A stretch of 30,949 bases of DNA from a virus, in UHGV virus genome UHGV-1530050. One strand, 5' to 3'. The position numbers and the translations under genes were made by a program. Below, in pieces: positions 123 through 30,813 of the stretch. How positions within the stretch are numbered: position 1 is the first letter of the stretch; each line of letters opens with the position of its first letter. The notes beneath the pieces were generated by a model. It saw only the letters and a program-made list of their open reading frames with translations, was not told the origin of the DNA and did not search any database.

Positions 123-144
123 AAAAAACCTGCCGAAGCAGGTT
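121..144 (-). terminator. Rho-independent terminator of the ogr/B-like gene
   Basis: On the - strand the stem AACCTGC/GCAGGTT with loop TTCG is followed by TTTTAT, starting at the ogr stop codon. Confidence 0.6.
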
Positions 145-362
145 CAAAGCCAAAGTTGCTGTTGTTGGTTTCTGATGGGGTGGGGCGGAGCAGGATCAAC
201 AGTGCCCGGTTTCACAATGAATCTTGATAGCGTCTCAAAAGTGATAAATGTACATCCGCAATTTATGTTCTGGCATTGGTGATAACGTTCTTTCGTTTCG
301 GTGCTAAGGTACCGGCTAGTACGAGCATGTGCGGCGTTTTGGCATAACGGGCAGTGCATCAT
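144..362 (-). CDS. ogr: Late gene transcriptional activator, Ogr/Delta (186 B) family zinc-finger protein
   Basis: 72 aa; C-P-L-C ... C-Q-N-I-N-C-G-C zinc-finger spacing and overall resemblance to P2 Ogr as I recall it; located after gene D as in P2/186. Confidence 0.85.
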   Translation of the reverse strand: MMHCPLCQNAAHARTSRYLSTETKERYHQCQNINCGCTFITFETLSRFIVKPGTVDPAPPHPIRNQQQQLWL

Positions 363-438
363 AATTTTTCCCCCTGCTGGCGCGTTTGAGGGAATAATAA
401 ACTCTAAAATTGCATTTGCAAGTTATGATTTGCTTTTT

Positions 439-11062: not shown

Positions 11063-11926
11063 ATGGAAGAATCTAAAAGAATACGCCAATTAAAAGAAAA
11101 CCTCATAAAGGAACTACCTTTCTTTCCAAATGAAAAATCAATACGCACTGAACTAGAAAATCAAAGTTTAAATGGGGTTTTAATCGCTTACCTCCACTGG
11201 AAAACAAGAATTGTGCCGACCCGCAGAAGGAGAGTTCATATATATCCAGAGGTAACGAGCGATAAAAGATGGAAAGAACTAAAACTTGGTATTCATGGGT
11301 TACTGGATAAGGTCAGAAAAGGTGAAGACTTATACCCTCATCTTTCATTGCGCGCACATAAGTATGGCTACACTCCTGTTGAAAGAATTCGTAATGGAGA
11401 TGCTGATTCATGGGAAGACAAAGATCAGTTATTAAATACGAAAGGTTTTCATCATTTTCATTTGAGCATGAATATTCAAAGTACAGGCTTGGCCGAAAGG
11501 ACAAATAATGTTCTTTTTGCCTTCGTTTCTCGCGACCAGTTTCGTGCTGTGGGGATATTTGATCATAGTGTATTTGATAAACCCGATAGTTTAAATGGCA
11601 TGACTGAGGAACGTGAAAGAATGTGGACCCTGCATGAAAAATACATCACATTCGGAATGAAAGCTGGCACAGTGTATATAAACAATCTGATAACAGCATC
11701 CGGGCATCCTGTAAATCTTATCATGCTCGCCGATCGTTATGCTGCAATCATCCGAGAATATGACCAGAAGGCGGAAGACAGAATTTTTGTAAATGAGCTT
11801 TATGCTCAAAGCCCACTTCCCTCTCCAGAAAGGTTTAAATTTGAGTGGCGCATAGAGGGTTTGGATCTTGTTCTTTTTGATAAAAAAAACAGAGTGGCCT
11901 TTAACGTCTACAAAGCTCACATTTAA
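11063..11926 (+). CDS. Hypothetical protein; AT-rich cargo gene in the S-V (P2 orf30) slot, antisense to the late genes
   Basis: 287 aa ORF with AGGA RBS 7 nt upstream; markedly lower GC than the flanking S and V genes; no motif I recognise. Confidence 0.6.
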   Translation: MEESKRIRQLKENLIKELPFFPNEKSIRTELENQSLNGVLIAYLHWKTRIVPTRRRRVHIYPEVTSDKRWKELKLGIHGLLDKVRKGEDLYPHLSLRAHKYGYTPVERIRNGDADSWEDKDQLLNTKGFHHFHLSMNIQSTGLAERTNNVLFAFVSRDQFRAVGIFDHSVFDKPDSLNGMTEERERMWTLHEKYITFGMKAGTVYINNLITASGHPVNLIMLADRYAAIIREYDQKAEDRIFVNELYAQSPLPSPERFKFEWRIEGLDLVLFDKKNRVAFNVYKAHI

Positions 11927-20814: not shown

Positions 20815-21819
20815 ATGGGCGCGGAGATTAATATTTTGGAAACTGATTTTAAAATAACCCTCGAAGGTTTCGCTACTGAGCAAGAAGCAAATAATATCGG
20901 TAATTTCACACTAGAAGCTATCCGAGCTTTAACAAAAAATCTCAATCTTGATATCTCCAAATTAAAATGCGTGATTGTTTCCTATAACTTCAGTGAAGCT
21001 CTTCAAAAGGTAACATCCTCTTACCAACACAAATCCCCTAGTTCATTTACCAATAGCAAACAGGGCGCAGCCGTCGGGCAGTTAGTAACAAAAATTGGCA
21101 ATGATGGGCTATGTGAAGAATATACCCTTGTGCTATCGATTGATTTTTTTGTTGAGCTTTTCAATGATGCTGGCTTCTTAAAACTGAAAGAAGAAGGATA
21201 CCTCGCAGTCATCCATCGCATTCACCATGAATTAGTGCACGTACATGAAAAAAACTTACTAACATGCTTAGCCCAAAACTTTACAGTCAACGAGTATGGT
21301 AGCGCGCTTCTTATCTCAGCCACGCGTGCATGGTCTGAATATCTCGCTAATTACATGTCTTCGGGGTCTGCCCCTCAAGAAACTATCGATTTATTTTTAG
21401 AGAATCTTGACACTGTTGTAAATGAAGTATCTGACGAAATTGAAAAACTCATCTGGGGTTATAAGTACGGTAATATTTCTCTGAATGACATGTATCTCGA
21501 AGTAAAAAAACGTATCAGGCTAATCATCAACTCTTATGCTTATGCGATGGGTTATGTCCATTCTCTAAACATCAATATTAAAGAATACGATCCAAAGCTA
21601 TCCCTTACACTATCCAACTCAAAGATAAGATATCAATTATCAGAATTAGGCATTGCTTTTCAGAATCTTTATGGGAAGTTTAATGACCAGCACATTACAG
21701 GTTTTGGTGATTTTCGGGAGATAACAATAATCATTGATGAAATATTCAAGCAGTTTGGGCTTGTTTTAGAGTGTCCCGATTGGTCTGGCGACGGTGAACT
21801 CTACATACATGTAAATTAG
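20815..21819 (+). CDS. Hypothetical protein with HExxH (HELVH) motif; AT-rich cargo gene between portal Q and cos
   Basis: 334 aa ORF with much lower GC than the backbone; ...VIHRIHHELVHVHEKN... contains a candidate zinc-metallopeptidase HExxH motif; RBS weak. Confidence 0.55.
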   Translation: MGAEINILETDFKITLEGFATEQEANNIGNFTLEAIRALTKNLNLDISKLKCVIVSYNFSEALQKVTSSYQHKSPSSFTNSKQGAAVGQLVTKIGNDGLCEEYTLVLSIDFFVELFNDAGFLKLKEEGYLAVIHRIHHELVHVHEKNLLTCLAQNFTVNEYGSALLISATRAWSEYLANYMSSGSAPQETIDLFLENLDTVVNEVSDEIEKLIWGYKYGNISLNDMYLEVKKRIRLIINSYAYAMGYVHSLNINIKEYDPKLSLTLSNSKIRYQLSELGIAFQNLYGKFNDQHITGFGDFREITIIIDEIFKQFGLVLECPDWSGDGELYIHVN

Positions 21820-22293: not shown

Positions 22294-23235
22294 ATGCAAG
22301 GTGAAGTTGACGAACAGCAACCCAATGAGATTATGTCGGAGTTTGGATACTATCCAGTAGAAGTTAACATTGAGACTGAACAATTTTCTTTGCTTACTTT
22401 ACCTGGTCTCAATGAGAAAGTGGAGCGTGTTAACAATGATAAAAACGTTGTGAAAGGTTGGATATACCCTGGAAACCAAGATGTATATAACCTTAATGGT
22501 GGTATATCCACAATGCCTTATAGTCACCGAGTATTCAGTATGCCCAAAACGCACACACTAAAATTAAAAAATACATCCTCGTTAGAAACTCTCAACTTTA
22601 TTGTGTGGTGCCTTTCTTTTTTCAAGGGAATAAGATTGACAACCACTGACGCTGGTTTTTTAGATGCAACCACTATCAAGCCCACTAAGTTAACCGACTT
22701 TATTCTCGTTGGATGCTCTGAAAAAGAAGTCATAGAACTGGCTCTTAATTATATAAATGGCAAACATAAGGATGCGCACTCCCCCAAAAGAATTGCGGCA
22801 GTGGTGCATGCACTATTCTTATCTCAAAACCCACAATACCTTTCTTTTGAAAAATTCCAGTACCTTTACATGGCACTTGATGGGTGCTTTGCTTTGTCGT
22901 GGGCTGAGCATGACAAGGCTCCTGATAAAAAACCGCCAAATCATTACAAGCGATTAAAGTGGATGTGCAAAATTTATGGGTTATCAATCCCCACATGGGT
23001 GTCAGGTAAAAAAAACATTTCTGGCATCCGCAATGATAATTTTCATGAGGCTATTTTTTTTGGTCAACCGCTTGGTTTCTCAAGTGTTAATAACAGTCAA
23101 TATGGTAACGATATATTGCTGCAAATGCAGGCACTGGTATGTCGCCTATTAGCGGCAATACTGTCGGTTAATGATTGCAGTTATCTCAAATCTTCGGTCA
23201 ACTCACGAGATTACCATTCATTAAAAATAAATTAA
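22294..23235 (+). CDS. Hypothetical protein; AT-rich cargo gene in the cos-proximal Q/A slot (P2 tin/old position)
   Basis: 313 aa ORF with a strong GGAG RBS 8 nt upstream; low GC; convergent with replication gene A as P2 old/tin are. Confidence 0.6.
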   Translation: MQGEVDEQQPNEIMSEFGYYPVEVNIETEQFSLLTLPGLNEKVERVNNDKNVVKGWIYPGNQDVYNLNGGISTMPYSHRVFSMPKTHTLKLKNTSSLETLNFIVWCLSFFKGIRLTTTDAGFLDATTIKPTKLTDFILVGCSEKEVIELALNYINGKHKDAHSPKRIAAVVHALFLSQNPQYLSFEKFQYLYMALDGCFALSWAEHDKAPDKKPPNHYKRLKWMCKIYGLSIPTWVSGKKNISGIRNDNFHEAIFFGQPLGFSSVNNSQYGNDILLQMQALVCRLLAAILSVNDCSYLKSSVNSRDYHSLKIN

Positions 23236-23718: not shown

Positions 23719-23949
23719 TTAACGCCAGCTATCGTCTTCCCAAATCTCTTGTAATATGCTGCCTAATGTTTCTCTGTCCGCCTCTTTATCGAATCCGATA
23801 GCCTCTACACCAGTCATTGACCCTTTCTTAACGTTAACTTTTGTTGCAGGAAAAACGCATTGTACTCGATGTGTTATTTCATTCTGAAAAGCATCAATGA
23901 TCTGTTGCCCTAATTTTTGCTCTTTATCCAACGTGATATTGATTCTCAT
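23719..23949 (-). CDS. DinI-like damage-inducible protein domain (possible Tum-like antirepressor C-terminal part)
   Basis: 76 aa; MRINITLDK...RVQCVFPA...ILQEIWEDDSW resembles the DinI family; in the same frame as the upstream 60-aa ORF, separated by a single TAG. Confidence 0.7.
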   Translation of the reverse strand: MRINITLDKEQKLGQQIIDAFQNEITHRVQCVFPATKVNVKKGSMTGVEAIGFDKEADRETLGSILQEIWEDDSWR

Positions 23950-23952
23950 AAT

Positions 23953-24135
23953 CTAATCAGCCTTATAAAAATTATCATCTTCGGTTTCGTTATTTTCGCT
24001 GTTTGCTAGGTCTGCAATGAGAGTGAGCGCGAGCTTTAAGTCTGATGGCTTGCAGTTTGCAATCAGAGATACCTCGGCAATAAATTGCACACAAGCCCAC
24101 TTTTGCTGCGTTCGGCTGAAATGTTCGCCAACCAT
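23953..24135 (-). CDS. Small SOS-regulated ORF (60 aa), possible N-terminal part of a Tum-like antirepressor
   Basis: GGGAGGG RBS; near-consensus LexA box 20-40 bp upstream; in frame with the dinI-like ORF across one amber codon. Confidence 0.5.
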   Translation of the reverse strand: MVGEHFSRTQQKWACVQFIAEVSLIANCKPSDLKLALTLIADLANSENNETEDDNFYKAD

Positions 24136-24154
24136 GAAATCCCTCCCATAGGGT

Positions 24155-24174
24155 TACTGTATATTTATACAGTA
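24155..24174 (-). promoter_or_regulatory. LexA box (SOS operator)
   Basis: TACTGTATATTTATACAGTA is a CTGT-N8-ACAG palindrome matching the E. coli LexA consensus TACTGTATATATATACAGTA at 19/20; overlaps a candidate TTGCCA -35 on the - strand. Confidence 0.8.
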
Positions 24175-27498: not shown

Positions 27499-28008
27499 TC
27501 AAATCAGACCAAACGATGCGCCAATACCGCTCATGGTATCGACCACGCTCGACATAGCTGGATTAGTCTGCAGACGTGCATGCAGCGCCAGAGCCGACAA
27601 TGACAACATGCGAATGCCGGAGTTAACGCTTTCAATCATGTTGTGCTTACGGGCAATGGTCAGACGTTCATCAGATACCGCGCCGCTCGCCAGTTCGCCG
27701 AGTTCACGCATTGCGCGCATGACATAAGACTGCAATTTGTCTTTAGCCAACTCATTAACCGGCACGCATGGTAGGCAGTGAATCTGCGCTAAAAAACCAT
27801 CAATGAGGGTTGAGTCTTCGGTCAGGTCAGTCAGCAGCCACAATTCAGGCGGCGTGAACTGGTGAGGCTGTTCCGGATTGAGCTTGTTACGTAACGTTTG
27901 AACGTTCATACCTGCACGCTCGGCCAGCTTCGCCATGTTGTGACGCTGTGCGAAAATGCGGCATGCTTCGTCATAGTGGGGATGTTTGGAAACCTGAAAA
28001 TCAAACAT
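27499..28008 (-). CDS. Early regulator with HTH motif, 186 CII-like or P2 B-like (second gene of the early operon)
   Basis: 169 aa from MFDFQ...; probable HTH (MAKLAERAGMNVQTLRNKL); size and position match 186 cII. Family assignment is from memory and uncertain. Confidence 0.6.
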   Translation of the reverse strand: MFDFQVSKHPHYDEACRIFAQRHNMAKLAERAGMNVQTLRNKLNPEQPHQFTPPELWLLTDLTEDSTLIDGFLAQIHCLPCVPVNELAKDKLQSYVMRAMRELGELASGAVSDERLTIARKHNMIESVNSGIRMLSLSALALHARLQTNPAMSSVVDTMSGIGASFGLI

Positions 28009-28040
28009 GGTTAAATTCCCTCTAACTTGCATAATCAAAT

Positions 28041-28412
28041 TCAGTTAAGAGCGGTGCGCTGGTCGATGTAGCGACAATCAATCGCTTGTTGAGTCAACTT
28101 ATCGCGCCATGCTTTTACATTTACGAGGGTTCGGCTTCGTTTAGCAGCTTCCTCTTTGTTGGAAAAGTCTTTGGTCGGAGCTTTGAGAAGGACTCCCTCA
28201 TCGAGCCATTGCCAGACCAGACGCTCGCTAACACCGCGAGTAGCGGCGAAGTCTTTCACAGTCATCGTGTCTGACATAGCGGAGCGAATCATTGTCTGTA
28301 GAGCTGGCAGCATGGCGGTAACGATGGCATCAAACTGTGTTGGATCTAGCAGCACAGTTTGATTTTGTGAGTTTTGCGAGTCGTGCGTCGAGATTGATTT
28401 TGCATCTGACAT
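28041..28412 (-). CDS. Apl/Cox-like HTH excisionase/early repressor (first gene of the lytic operon)
   Basis: 123 aa with AGGAGA RBS; HTH-like segment (MTVKDFAATRGVSERLVWQWL); divergent from cI. Longer than P2 Cox or 186 Apl; an internal start at 28313 is possible but lacks an RBS. Confidence 0.6.
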   Translation of the reverse strand: MSDAKSISTHDSQNSQNQTVLLDPTQFDAIVTAMLPALQTMIRSAMSDTMTVKDFAATRGVSERLVWQWLDEGVLLKAPTKDFSNKEEAAKRSRTLVNVKAWRDKLTQQAIDCRYIDQRTALN

Positions 28413-28475
28413 ATCGCATTATCTCCTGTTGTTTGAAATGTAGTGCAGTGGTGTGCATCTTGGTCGATGAATGCC

Positions 28476-28504
28476 ACTATAGATCGTAAAAAATTTTCTG
28501 TAAA
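28476..28504 (-). promoter_or_regulatory. Candidate sigma70 early lytic promoter (pR/Pe-like)
   Basis: On the - strand: -35 TTTACA (28504..28499), 17-nt spacer, -10 TATAGT (28481..28476), about 65 nt upstream of the Apl-like start. Confidence 0.5.
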
Positions 28505-28533
28505 CACCCATAAAATTATCTGTAGGGGTTTTT

Positions 28534-29394
28534 ATGAGTTCTGAGCTTGATGTTCAGTGGCGTGTTAGTGCAACGAACGGCGTATTGGAACGCTTAATGT
28601 CAGCCTATGGGGTCAAGATGCAAAAGGATTTGGCTGACCTGCTAGGTATCGCTAAACACAGCGTTAGCGGCTGGGTTCAGCGTGATGCAATACCTGGCAA
28701 TGTCATAGTTAGGTGTTGTCTTGACACGGGAGCTGATATCAATTGGCTTGTAAATGGAGAGCTTGCAAATGCAAATCACGAGCGAGTCAGTTGCAAGTTA
28801 AAAGGCAAAGAGCTTTATGACGAGATTATGACGAATGGTGGTAAAACCGTTTTGCGTAGGATTCTTGATGCGTATGGCTTTACCATGCAAAAGGAGCTCG
28901 GTGATTTGCTCGGCATTTCCTCTGGCACAATTAGCACATGGGTAAGGCGAGATTTTTTCCCTGGTGATGTTGTTGTTACATGCGCTCTTGATACCGATAC
29001 GTCACTGGAATGGTTAGCAACAGGCAAGGGGCAAATGCGAGCTAACAGGGAAGATGTCACATCTGGTTTTTCTATTAAAAAATCTCGTCTTGAATCTGGT
29101 GAGCTTAAGGATGCAGGAACGTGGCATCCTGACCCCTCAATGATTCCTTCTAACTCAGGGGAATTGATTTTTGTTGACGGTGTAGCTGCCTCTTGGCTTG
29201 TCGACTGTTCTGCTTCGAATATAAGTAATGGTCGCTGGTTAATTGATATCGACGGCGCTCTTGATGTTTTTGATGTAATTCGTTTACCTGGTGGAAAAGT
29301 CAGGTTGTCAAATAAGTCTGCTGAGTTTGAATGCAACATTACCGACATTACGCCTGCCGGGGTTGTAGTTTTCACATTGGAAAAACACGTATAA
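28534..29394 (+). CDS. cI: CI-type immunity repressor with tandem-duplicated N-terminal HTH domains
   Basis: 286 aa; residues ~14-75 and ~103-165 are clear paralogous copies (LERLMSAYGVKMQKDLADLLGIAKHSVSGWVQRD... vs LRRILDAYGFTMQKELGDLLGISSGTISTWVRRD...), resembling the 186 CI-type HTH domain; AGGGG RBS. Confidence 0.8.
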   Translation: MSSELDVQWRVSATNGVLERLMSAYGVKMQKDLADLLGIAKHSVSGWVQRDAIPGNVIVRCCLDTGADINWLVNGELANANHERVSCKLKGKELYDEIMTNGGKTVLRRILDAYGFTMQKELGDLLGISSGTISTWVRRDFFPGDVVVTCALDTDTSLEWLATGKGQMRANREDVTSGFSIKKSRLESGELKDAGTWHPDPSMIPSNSGELIFVDGVAASWLVDCSASNISNGRWLIDIDGALDVFDVIRLPGGKVRLSNKSAEFECNITDITPAGVVVFTLEKHV

Positions 29395-29402
29395 GGGAAA
29401 TT

Positions 29403-29741
29403 ATGAAACGTAAACTCTTTTTAGCTATGCTTCTTACCTTTTCTTTTGGCTCCTTAGCCGCTGAAAAAAAACAGGATTTAGATGGCGCTAAGTTTGGTGA
29501 GGATTGGCCGTTAACTTTTGAAAAAGCTACGGTGTCTTGCGTTAACGGTAAGTATGCCTTTGTATACGACAAAGCAACTGATGACCGATACCCATTAAAT
29601 GGTTTTGCTATTGATGGAGTAAAGTCTGGAAAGCTTGAGGGGAGCAATATTGATGCTGTTTGGAAAGACAGTCCAGAGTATGCAGGTGTAAAAATTCCTT
29701 TGGATCCTGTAATGGATGCCGCAACAGCACTTTGCGAATAA
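29403..29741 (+). CDS. Secreted small protein, YebY/DUF2511-like (possible lysogenic conversion gene)
   Basis: 112 aa from MKRKLFLAMLLTFSFGSLAAE (signal peptide); W..F..E....C ... YPLN ... SGK ... C-terminal Cys pattern resembles E. coli YebY as I recall it; AAGGGA RBS. Confidence 0.65.
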   Translation: MKRKLFLAMLLTFSFGSLAAEKKQDLDGAKFGEDWPLTFEKATVSCVNGKYAFVYDKATDDRYPLNGFAIDGVKSGKLEGSNIDAVWKDSPEYAGVKIPLDPVMDAATALCE

Positions 29742-29763
29742 TTAGAGTTGCCTCGGTGACATT

Positions 29764-30813
29764 ATGACTGTAAGTAAGCAAAAAAATGGCAAATGGTTAT
29801 GCGAGCTCTATCCAAATGGTCGAGAAGGGCGACGTATACGTCGGCAATTCAATACCAAAGGTGAGGCTGAGGCATTCGAAGCATTTACCAAAAGCGAGAG
29901 TGAAGATAAGCCGTGGCTTGGCAAGAAAGAAGACCGCCGACGCTTAAGCGAGATTATTCAGCTTTGGCACAATTTGCACGGTCAAGCGTTAGTCGCCAGT
30001 AAGTCGAGGTTAGCAAAGCTTCAAATCGTATGTAATGGGCTTGGTGACCCGATTGCATCTCGCCTTACCGCGAAAGACTGGGCTCATTATCGTGACCGTC
30101 GATTACGTGGTGAAATAGACAACGGTTATCATAAAGACCCCTCGAAATGGATCGCCAAACCTATAACCGTCAATCGCGAACAGCAATACCTAGAAGCAGT
30201 GTTTAATGAGCTCCGCCGGTTAGGGGAGTGGAGCCTACCCAATCCACTTGATGGGATTCGAGTATTCAAAGAAGCTGAGAAAGAAATGTCCTGGCTAACT
30301 TTGTCTCAGCTCCCGGAGCTGTTTCGAGCCTGCGAGCAATACGGCAAAGAAGACCTCACCATGATTGTTAAGGTGTGCCTTGCAACCGGCGCTCGATGGG
30401 GGGAGGCGGAGAGATTGACCCGCCCTCAACTTTCTCCATATAAACTGACGTTCACCAAAACCAAAGGTAAGAAGAATCGCACAGTTCCTATTCCTAAATG
30501 GCTGTACGACGAGTTGTCCGAACGTCAGGGCAGAATGTTTAAACCCTGCTATCAGGAGTTTAAAAAGATGCTCAAACTAACGAATATTGAATTGACGGAA
30601 GGGCAGAAGACGCACGTTTTGCGTCATACTTTTGGTGCGCATTTTATGATGAACGGCGGGAATATACTGGTACTGCAGAAAATTCTCGGGCATGCCAATA
30701 TTCGAGAAACAATGAAGTATGCACACTTTGCTCCTGACCACCTTGAACAAGCTGTAACCCTTAATCCGTTATCGCTGTATGTTGGCGACAATATGGCGGC
30801 AGAGGTTGCATAA
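29764..30813 (+). CDS. int: Tyrosine integrase (P2/186 Int family)
   Basis: 349 aa; C-terminal catalytic-domain residues (R...HVLRHTF...KYAHF Tyr); last gene before the att region. Confidence 0.9.
   Translation: MTVSKQKNGKWLCELYPNGREGRRIRRQFNTKGEAEAFEAFTKSESEDKPWLGKKEDRRRLSEIIQLWHNLHGQALVASKSRLAKLQIVCNGLGDPIASRLTAKDWAHYRDRRLRGEIDNGYHKDPSKWIAKPITVNREQQYLEAVFNELRRLGEWSLPNPLDGIRVFKEAEKEMSWLTLSQLPELFRACEQYGKEDLTMIVKVCLATGARWGEAERLTRPQLSPYKLTFTKTKGKKNRTVPIPKWLYDELSERQGRMFKPCYQEFKKMLKLTNIELTEGQKTHVLRHTFGAHFMMNGGNILVLQKILGHANIRETMKYAHFAPDHLEQAVTLNPLSLYVGDNMAAEVA
30783..30806. repeat. Two copies of the TGGCG(G/A)CA motif in the int 3' end; candidate att core/arm sites
   Basis: tggcgacaata (30783-30793) and tggcggcagaggt (30794-30806); caaWWtggcggcagagRttg matches 84..103 at 17/20. 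Confidence 0.4.

Follow-up and report, generated by a model that had tools for sequence, protein, structure and literature searches.

Genes and proteins at the immunity locus

The window, by which we mean the whole 30,949-nucleotide stretch of UHGV virus genome UHGV-1530050, carries near its right end a lysis-lysogeny switch laid out like that of phage 186. The local gene order is cII (−), orf30 (−), cI (+), a DUF2511 gene and int (+). As in 186, cI and int diverge from the lytic operon, which begins with a gene in the apl position and continues with cII. A strong, leftward, pR-like promoter lies just upstream of cI and points away from it toward orf30 and cII, and an equivalent promoter is present in relatives. 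The genes and protein domains of the region are as follows.

27499..28008 (−): cII homologue (Phage_CP76)
28041..28412 (−): orf30, a 123-aa gene in the Apl/Cox position, divergent from cI
28476..28504 (−): pR-like lytic promoter; −35 TTTACA at 28504-28499, 17-nt spacer, −10 TATAGT at 28481-28476
28534..29394 (+): cI, 286-aa immunity repressor; N1 HTH, linker, N2 HTH, linker, 186-type C-terminal domain
28576..28776 (+): N1 HTH domain, residues 15-81 (HMM envelope)
28654-28683 (+): N1 recognition helix, residues 41-50, KHSVSGWVQR (helices from the AlphaFold2 model)
28840..29040 (+): N2 HTH domain, residues 103-169 (HMM envelope, AlphaFold2 helices)
28921-28947 (+): N2 recognition helix, residues 130-138, SGTISTWVR
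29071..29385 (+): C-terminal oligomerisation domain, residues 180-284, with the 186 CI C-terminal fold (PF16452, Foldseek)
29764..30813 (+): int

The initial annotation had described CI as two adjacent paralogous helix-turn-helix (HTH) modules followed by a C-terminal domain, and Pfam, BLASTP self-comparison and an AlphaFold2 model all agree with this description. PF07022 (Phage_CI_repr) matches the 286-aa protein twice (E = 1.3e-52), and PF16452 (Phage_CI_C) matches residues 180-274 (E = 1.2e-20). Residues 1-91 are 49% identical to part of residues 92-286 over 77 aa (E = 8e-24, BLASTP). Self-alignment gave one strong repeat offset, 89 aa with 40 identities, against at most 19 identities at every other offset. 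In the AlphaFold2 model (mean pLDDT 76.5, from a 45-sequence alignment), five-helix bundles occupy residues 17-74 and 103-163, with helices 2 and 3 forming an HTH in each; the second copy is thus an HTH by predicted fold as well as by family. The linkers at residues 78-89 and 168-177 have pLDDT values below 50, and the C-terminal domain is all-beta.

By its PF07022 HTH and its PF16452 C-terminal beta domain, CI belongs to the 186-type repressor family. The canonical plan of that family is one HTH plus a C-terminal domain in about 190 aa, whereas this CI has 286 aa and two HTHs. The best Foldseek match of the model is the 186 CI structure 2fjr (E = 1.5e-17), and the C-terminal domain superimposes on 2fkd with a TM score of 0.88 and an rmsd of 1.6 Å. 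In a phmmer search, 2fjr covered residues 105-279 only (E = 1.1e-21), so the extra module is the N-terminal one and 186 CI has a single HTH, as the initial annotation had stated. Pfam returned no Peptidase_S24 match, the self-cleaving type of LexA and lambda CI, and LexA C-terminal domains gave only weak fold matches (TM 0.55-0.6, Foldseek). No specific NCBIfam family was found for CI.

A module under apparent SOS control lies several kilobases to the left of the switch.

23719..24172 (−): SOS module, comprising LexA box, Tum-position ORF and dinI homologue
24157-24172: LexA box CTGTATATTTATACAG, directly upstream of the 60-aa ORF
23953..24135 (−): Tum-position ORF, 60 aa, without a family match
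23719..23949 (−): dinI homologue

The succession of LexA box, 60-aa ORF and dinI looks like the 'split tum' antirepressor module of PSP3, which has been described (PMC3121763). A putative SOS-controlled antirepressor would be a further likeness to 186, and prophage induction probably proceeds through this module.

Several neighboring genes deserve mention in their own right. No Pfam family was matched by orf30; the PsP3 Cox/Apl analogue has been termed a singleton (PMC3448106), and the Apl-position genes of the window and 186 are unrelated. In Pantoea loci (L087-L089), orf30 co-occurs with a double-HTH cI, and the Midge record reports for its Apl-position gene an HHpred match to a Mesorhizobium R7A DNA-binding protein. 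The DUF2511/YebY-family gene between cI and int (29403-29741, +) has a signal-peptide-like N-terminus, keeps its place between cI and int in most relatives, and is probably expressed from the lysogenic operon. Elsewhere in the window, three plus-strand ORFs of 287, 334 and 313 aa (11063-11926, 20815-21819 and 22294-23235) had no Pfam match; the first has a weak match to the PADLOC candidate defence family PD-T4-7 (E = 4.8e-9). All three may be accessory or defence genes in P2-like hotspots.

Spread and history of the double-HTH repressor

Positions 28000-29800 of the window match Escherichia phage vB_EcoM-613R3 at 99.6% identity and the Salmonella phages SEN1 and PSP3 at 96.6% and 93%, respectively; PSP3 is a member of the genus Eganvirus, the 186-type P2-like phages. 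We read cI as the 186-type immunity repressor of a PSP3-like E. coli prophage. The same region was found in 68 of 5426 complete E. coli genomes. CI is 98% identical over its 286 aa to PSP3 CI (AAN08403.1, annotated 'cI, immunity repressor'), essentially the same protein with the same immunity type, and the two phages have near-identical switch regions and pag promoters. The possibility of a novel immunity specificity, raised in the initial annotation, therefore falls away: the protein is already in databases as PSP3 CI, its immunity type was known before, and the architecture occurs widely. Note that PsP3 CI has been recorded as longer than 186 CI, the difference being ascribed to 'a longer C-terminal domain' (Nilsson et al. 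2011, PMC3448106). Our literature search for a tandem HTH in PSP3-type CI found no description. What appears to be new is the recognition of the tandem-HTH CI as a widespread variant of the 186 switch.

The cI reading frame is intact in phages PSP3, SEN1, Midge, RCIP0057 and vB_EcoM-613R3, and occurs in at least 44 complete E. coli genomes and in 462 stretches in IMG/VR. The architecture was found in approximately 75 species-representative Enterobacterales genomes, and a scan of one genome per species yielded 100 loci. Among 5.8 billion proteins we found 731 relatives. The best 120 of these 731, from Klebsiella, Enterobacter, Salmonella, Citrobacter, Pantoea, Cronobacter, Brenneria and others, are nearly all 267-290 aa long with the same Pfam content, and include one 208-aa entry without the C-terminal domain. 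It had been considered that the ORF might be a fusion artefact of two genes; the presence of the same frame in isolated phages, E. coli genomes and IMG/VR stretches excludes this. More broadly, that the long ORF arose through annotation or assembly, or is a decaying pseudogene, has a negligible probability, given a frame that is intact in isolated viable phages (PSP3, SEN1 and Midge) and that hundreds of prophages retain at 45-99% identity, both domains bearing signs of selection.

The history of the two modules was read from a domain tree built on 75 copies each of N1 and N2, together with the N-terminal domain of 186 CI and those of four single-HTH relatives. Seventy of the 75 N1 domains form one pure clade. 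The sole HTH of the single-HTH relatives groups with N2 (73-79% identical to N2, 39-45% to N1), which marks N1 as the added copy, and the 186 domain is equidistant from both (35% and 39%). N1 would thus be an old N-terminal addition to a repressor made of N2 and the C-terminal domain, with N2 ancestral. The single-HTH relatives are 196-aa CI proteins of Rahnella, Ewingella and Chimaeribacter prophages (L078-L085). They share with the window CI a homologous C-terminal domain, the N2-type helix SSGTISTW and the same family of DNA dyad, but are without N1.

N1 and N2 have evolved very differently. Over 75 loci, mean pairwise identity is 58% in N1, 77% in N2 and 46% in the C-terminal domain, and helix 3 scores 7-9 in N2 versus 4-6 in N1; because N2 peptide motifs served to retrieve the 80 genome loci, that set overstates how conserved N2 is. 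A set of 45 sequences from a whole-protein search, not chosen by domain, has 32 invariant columns in N2 versus 12 in N1. The N2 recognition helix is near-invariant (I-S-S-G-T-I-S-T-W), whereas that of N1 is hypervariable (AKHSVSG, PSNSVST, PANNISS, APNNISS, AKSNVAS, PTNTISN, PLPTINN, PRSTVSN, PKSTVSN and others).

Tandem HTHs are not confined to this lineage. The Kapieceevirus-type CI (Klebsiella phage ST11-OXA245phi3.1, P0137, L091) and the P0162/P0166/P0172 group both have two PF07022-like HTHs and a CI-type C-terminal domain. Their HTH copies are 63% and 52-67% identical, respectively, with similar recognition helices within each pair, and their domains are only 23-48% identical to those of PSP3 type. 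On this comparison, we judge tandem HTHs to have arisen independently at least two further times. The mycobacteriophage immunity repressor, a monomer, also has two DNA-binding domains in one chain, which bind one asymmetric site (PMC9283540); it belongs to an unrelated family and reads one site rather than two classes, so it serves as an analogy only.

A query with N2 alone retrieved about 13 full-length clusters with two matched stretches from a library clustered at 50% identity. Four proteins of 517-1312 aa (P0156, P0189, P0173 and P0216) have six to seven tandem HTH stretches related to the CI HTH; P0156 and P0189, whose sequences were fetched, are acidic and repeat-rich. IMG/VR has many N2-like, single-HTH cI genes in terminal positions on viral contigs of only approximately 13-16 kb (L196-L230). 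Such contigs may represent satellite-like or defective elements and not complete P2-like prophages.

Candidate operators at pR, within cI and at the late-activator promoter

The window has operator-like sites at pR, at the late-activator promoter, inside cI and at the apl/cII junction, positions that correspond to the CI sites annotated in the 186 GenBank record (U32222): pR, pB (the late-activator promoter), FL (inside cI) and FR (the apl/cII junction).

144..362 (−): pag/ogr late-gene activator, 72 aa, C4 zinc finger, 100% identical to PSP3 Pag
410..421: pB-like dyad TTGCAAATGCAA over the pag/ogr −35 (TTGCAA, 421-416); −10 TATTAT ending at 394, minus strand
28027..28038: degenerate FR-like dyad TTGCATAATCAA at the orf30/cII junction
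28492..28517: candidate N1 operator, AT-rich inverted repeat AATTTTCTG / CATAAAATT, straddling the pR −35
28763..28774: FL-like dyad TTGCAAATGCAA inside cI, codons L77-N81, in the N1-N2 linker

The initial annotation had proposed a search for repeated half-sites in the switch region at 28413..28533 and in other intergenic regions. The clearest conserved site lies outside that switch region: TTGCAAATGCAA, a perfect dyad of the form TTGCA-NN-TGCAA, occurs exactly twice in the 30.9-kb window, at 28763-28774 and 410-421, where 0.01 copies are expected. The intragenic copy is at cI +229, approximately 265 bp from the pR −35.

We ranked conservation along cI after codon alignment of 40 non-redundant double-HTH genes (<85% amino-acid identity). 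Of 846 windows of 12 nt, the one at +229 ranks first in conservation; it codes for a variable linker, yet its third-codon positions are conserved. The dyad has at most one arm mismatch in 33 of the 40 genes and at most two in 37, against a background of 0.0037 per equivalent window for one mismatch or fewer, an approximately 200-fold enrichment. It is shifted by 8 nt in seven genes. Phage SW9, which has a different N1 type, carries perfect dyads at the same two places, plus one other. At the pag promoter, the dyad is kept in PSP3, Midge, RCIP0057 and SW9, as a one-mismatch variant (TTGAAAATGCAA) in SEN1, and in IMG/VR contigs with a linked cI; few IMG/VR contigs can be linked in this way, and the linked cI and pag data cover three or four N1 types. 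A clean pag dyad is absent from the double-HTH phage L261/L185, though its intragenic dyad is present. The −35 hexamer TTGCAA lies within the pag dyad, and promoter sequence therefore accounts for some of the conservation there.

Among the single-HTH relatives, CTTGCATTTGCGAG or CTTGAYTTTGCAAG lies in the spacer of a pR-like promoter (TTGACA, 17 nt, TAGATT), so that the N2-type dyad itself would be the pR-spacer operator there. This provides the decisive cross-check, as relatives that have only the N2 helix carry the dyad at pR, and the N2 helix therefore goes with the dyad. Both double-HTH loci whose N2 helix ends in TMSAW (L053 and L067) have +229 variants ending in TGTAA (TTGCAAATGTAA and TTAAAAATGTAA). 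This pairing hints that the N2 helix and the dyad may covary; a variant ending in TGTAA was also seen at one pag promoter (L188).

Other explanations for the intragenic dyad were considered. An RNA hairpin was rejected, as 5-bp arms around a 2-nt center cannot fold stably. The dyad is possibly just a recombination linker, a reading that leaves the identical pag copy and the pR-spacer dyad of the single-HTH relatives unexplained. A general FR-like site was also dropped: the dyad at the orf30/cII junction is good in only 4 of the 40 non-redundant loci, being perfect or with one mismatch in L076 and the Kosakonia loci.

At pR, the sequence in the promoter spacer or −35 region of relatives is a palindrome that differs with the type of N1 helix, as the following examples show.

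PANNISS: AATCGCAAATGCGATT, in Kosakonia, and also in Pluralibacter with a different left half of the switch
APNNISS: TCGCAAAATGCGA
PTNTISN: ACACGTAACGTGT
PLPTINN: ATCCATATGGAT
PRSTVSN: ATGCCGCATTATGCGGCAT
PKSTVSN: ATCCCGCATTTTGCGGGAT
AKSNVAS: TTTTATTTA-actg-TAAATAAAA

Across 55 distinct loci, pR-spacer identity correlated with N1 helix 3 (Mantel r = 0.71; partial r = 0.63 controlling for the C-terminal domain) and less with N2 helix 3 (0.38; partial 0.25). Among pairs with C-terminal domains more than 80% identical, 53% of spacer bases are shared when the N1 helix differs versus 93% when it is the same. Where the C-terminal domains are less than 50% identical, 74% of spacer bases are shared with the same N1 helix versus 43% with a different one. 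The window and Midge have near-identical DNA to the left of the pR −10, as well as near-identical N2 and C-terminal domains, and diverge from the pR −10 through N1. Note that N1 adjoins pR, and their covariation could also come from linkage in mosaic recombination, without function.

No clean pR palindrome was found for the KHSV-type N1 of the window. Loci with this N1 have a conserved stretch, TATAGATCGTWAAAAATTWYCTGTAAA, at pR. The AT-rich repeat AATTTTCTG / CATAAAATT is a weak candidate for the N1 operator of the KHSV immunity type; comparable inverted repeats, their arms 8 nt apart, occur in Pantoea loci that share this N1 helix. TCTGTA, which occurs on the plus strand at 28295, 28497 and 28519 (within 225 bp, out of six copies on both strands of the whole window), was dropped as an N1 half-site, as its third copy is not conserved in the Pantoea loci with the same N1 helix.

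Two further repeats were observed in the switch. The conserved palindrome CATCT-tggt-CGATG (28454-28473) lies between the pR −10 and orf30, with a Kosakonia counterpart, TGCTGTGCAT-N8-ATGCACAGCA (L013, about 2385-2412); it may serve as an operator for the Apl-position protein or as one more CI site. Toward the 5′ end of orf30 there is a 14-nt inverted repeat, ATCAAACTGTGTTG / CAGCACAGTTTGAT (28329-28363), 93% complementary with its arms 7 nt apart, at about the place where analogy with 186 pL would put a cI-sense promoter.

A proposed division of two heads between two classes of site

Taken with the protein comparisons, these sites suggest a pairing in which the invariant N2 helix goes with the invariant dyad and the variable N1 helix with the variable palindromes. 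We consider it probable, from this comparative sequence evidence, that N1 sets immunity specificity at pR and that N2 reads TTGCA-NN-TGCAA. The altered operator architecture that the initial annotation had drawn from the duplicated domain thus appears to hold, in that the two HTHs seem tied to two different classes of DNA site; comparative evidence that the heads serve different operator classes also appears to be new. Under this proposal, an ancient tandem duplication would have placed two HTH heads on flexible linkers in front of a 186-CI-type oligomerisation domain, through which CI most likely oligomerises. N1, the immunity-specific head, would bind an operator overlapping the lytic promoter pR, while N2, the ancestral head, would bind the family-conserved dyad at the pag/ogr −35 and inside cI. 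Repression of pag by CI and a wheel-type oligomer are both steps that we infer.

The comparison with 186 is instructive here. In 186, pB, FL and FR carry ATTCAC-N5-GTGAAT, unlike the 186 pR sites. One HTH reads both operator classes, and FL and FR lie approximately 300 bp from pR (PMC3675496). The window has a different dyad and two HTHs, which are only 38% identical to the 186 N-terminal domain. Two operator classes read by one HTH in 186 CI would here be the province of two dedicated HTHs.

Three other assignments of the two heads have to be weighed against this proposal. Both HTHs might act jointly at every operator, on composite sites of N1 and N2 half-sites and with no split between promoters. 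We regard this as unlikely: the linker between the two heads is short and flexible, a Serratia N2-like dyad (TTGTAAATGCAA) directly adjoins the N1 palindrome at pR, and TGCA-containing repeats lie 40-50 bp from the pR operator of the window, but the window and most loci are without an N2-type dyad at pR, and no lineage-specific N1-type sequence accompanies the FL and pag sites. At the opposite extreme, N2 might be the only DNA reader and N1 a fast-evolving module that does not bind DNA, such as an antirepressor decoy or sensor in an arms race. The hypervariability of N1, concentrated at exposed positions, would suit such a role. That variation is nevertheless centered on the HTH recognition helix and follows the distinct pR palindromes, and pR in the window, being without an N2-type dyad, would be left with no operator at all; this assignment seems very improbable.

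The remaining possibility is that N1 alone reads operators and N2 is a structural spacer or a docking surface, for a Tum-like antirepressor or for positioning in the wheel. The conserved dyad would in that case be bound by another factor. We consider this assignment quite unlikely. N2 is conserved across its whole surface, beyond helix 3, and a putative SOS-controlled antirepressor module is present; the high conservation of N2 could instead come from antirepressor docking. Three observations speak for DNA reading by N2: the single-HTH relatives depend on an N2-like HTH alone and have the dyad between the −35 and −10 of pR, the places where it lies match the CI sites annotated in 186, and no other regulator is known to act both at a late-activator promoter and inside cI.

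If the division of labor between N1 and N2 holds, one CI oligomer could have two independent DNA-binding surfaces, staying on pR by means of N1 and at the same time occupying the distal FL and pag sites by means of N2; the 186 sites, by comparison, compete for one set of HTHs. Furthermore, because N2 and the dyad are common to heteroimmune relatives, a prophage might shut off the late-gene activator of a heteroimmune phage that superinfects its host. Taken jointly, as we assess them, these two extensions are conceivable but doubtful.

186 CI is a classic model of cooperative, wheel-shaped repressors, in which a wheel of seven dimers wraps or loops DNA, and how its one HTH recognizes two unrelated operator sequences is a long-standing puzzle. 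A widespread relative that apparently splits these site classes between two HTHs would offer a natural dissection of that puzzle. It also gives a testable rule: immunity would change when N1 is exchanged along with the pR operator next to it, N2 and its sites being left as they are. The proposed division of labor predicts cross-talk between heteroimmune prophages at the late-activator promoter. If true, cross-repression of pag would amount to a layer of partial cross-immunity among the P2/186-like prophages of Enterobacterales.
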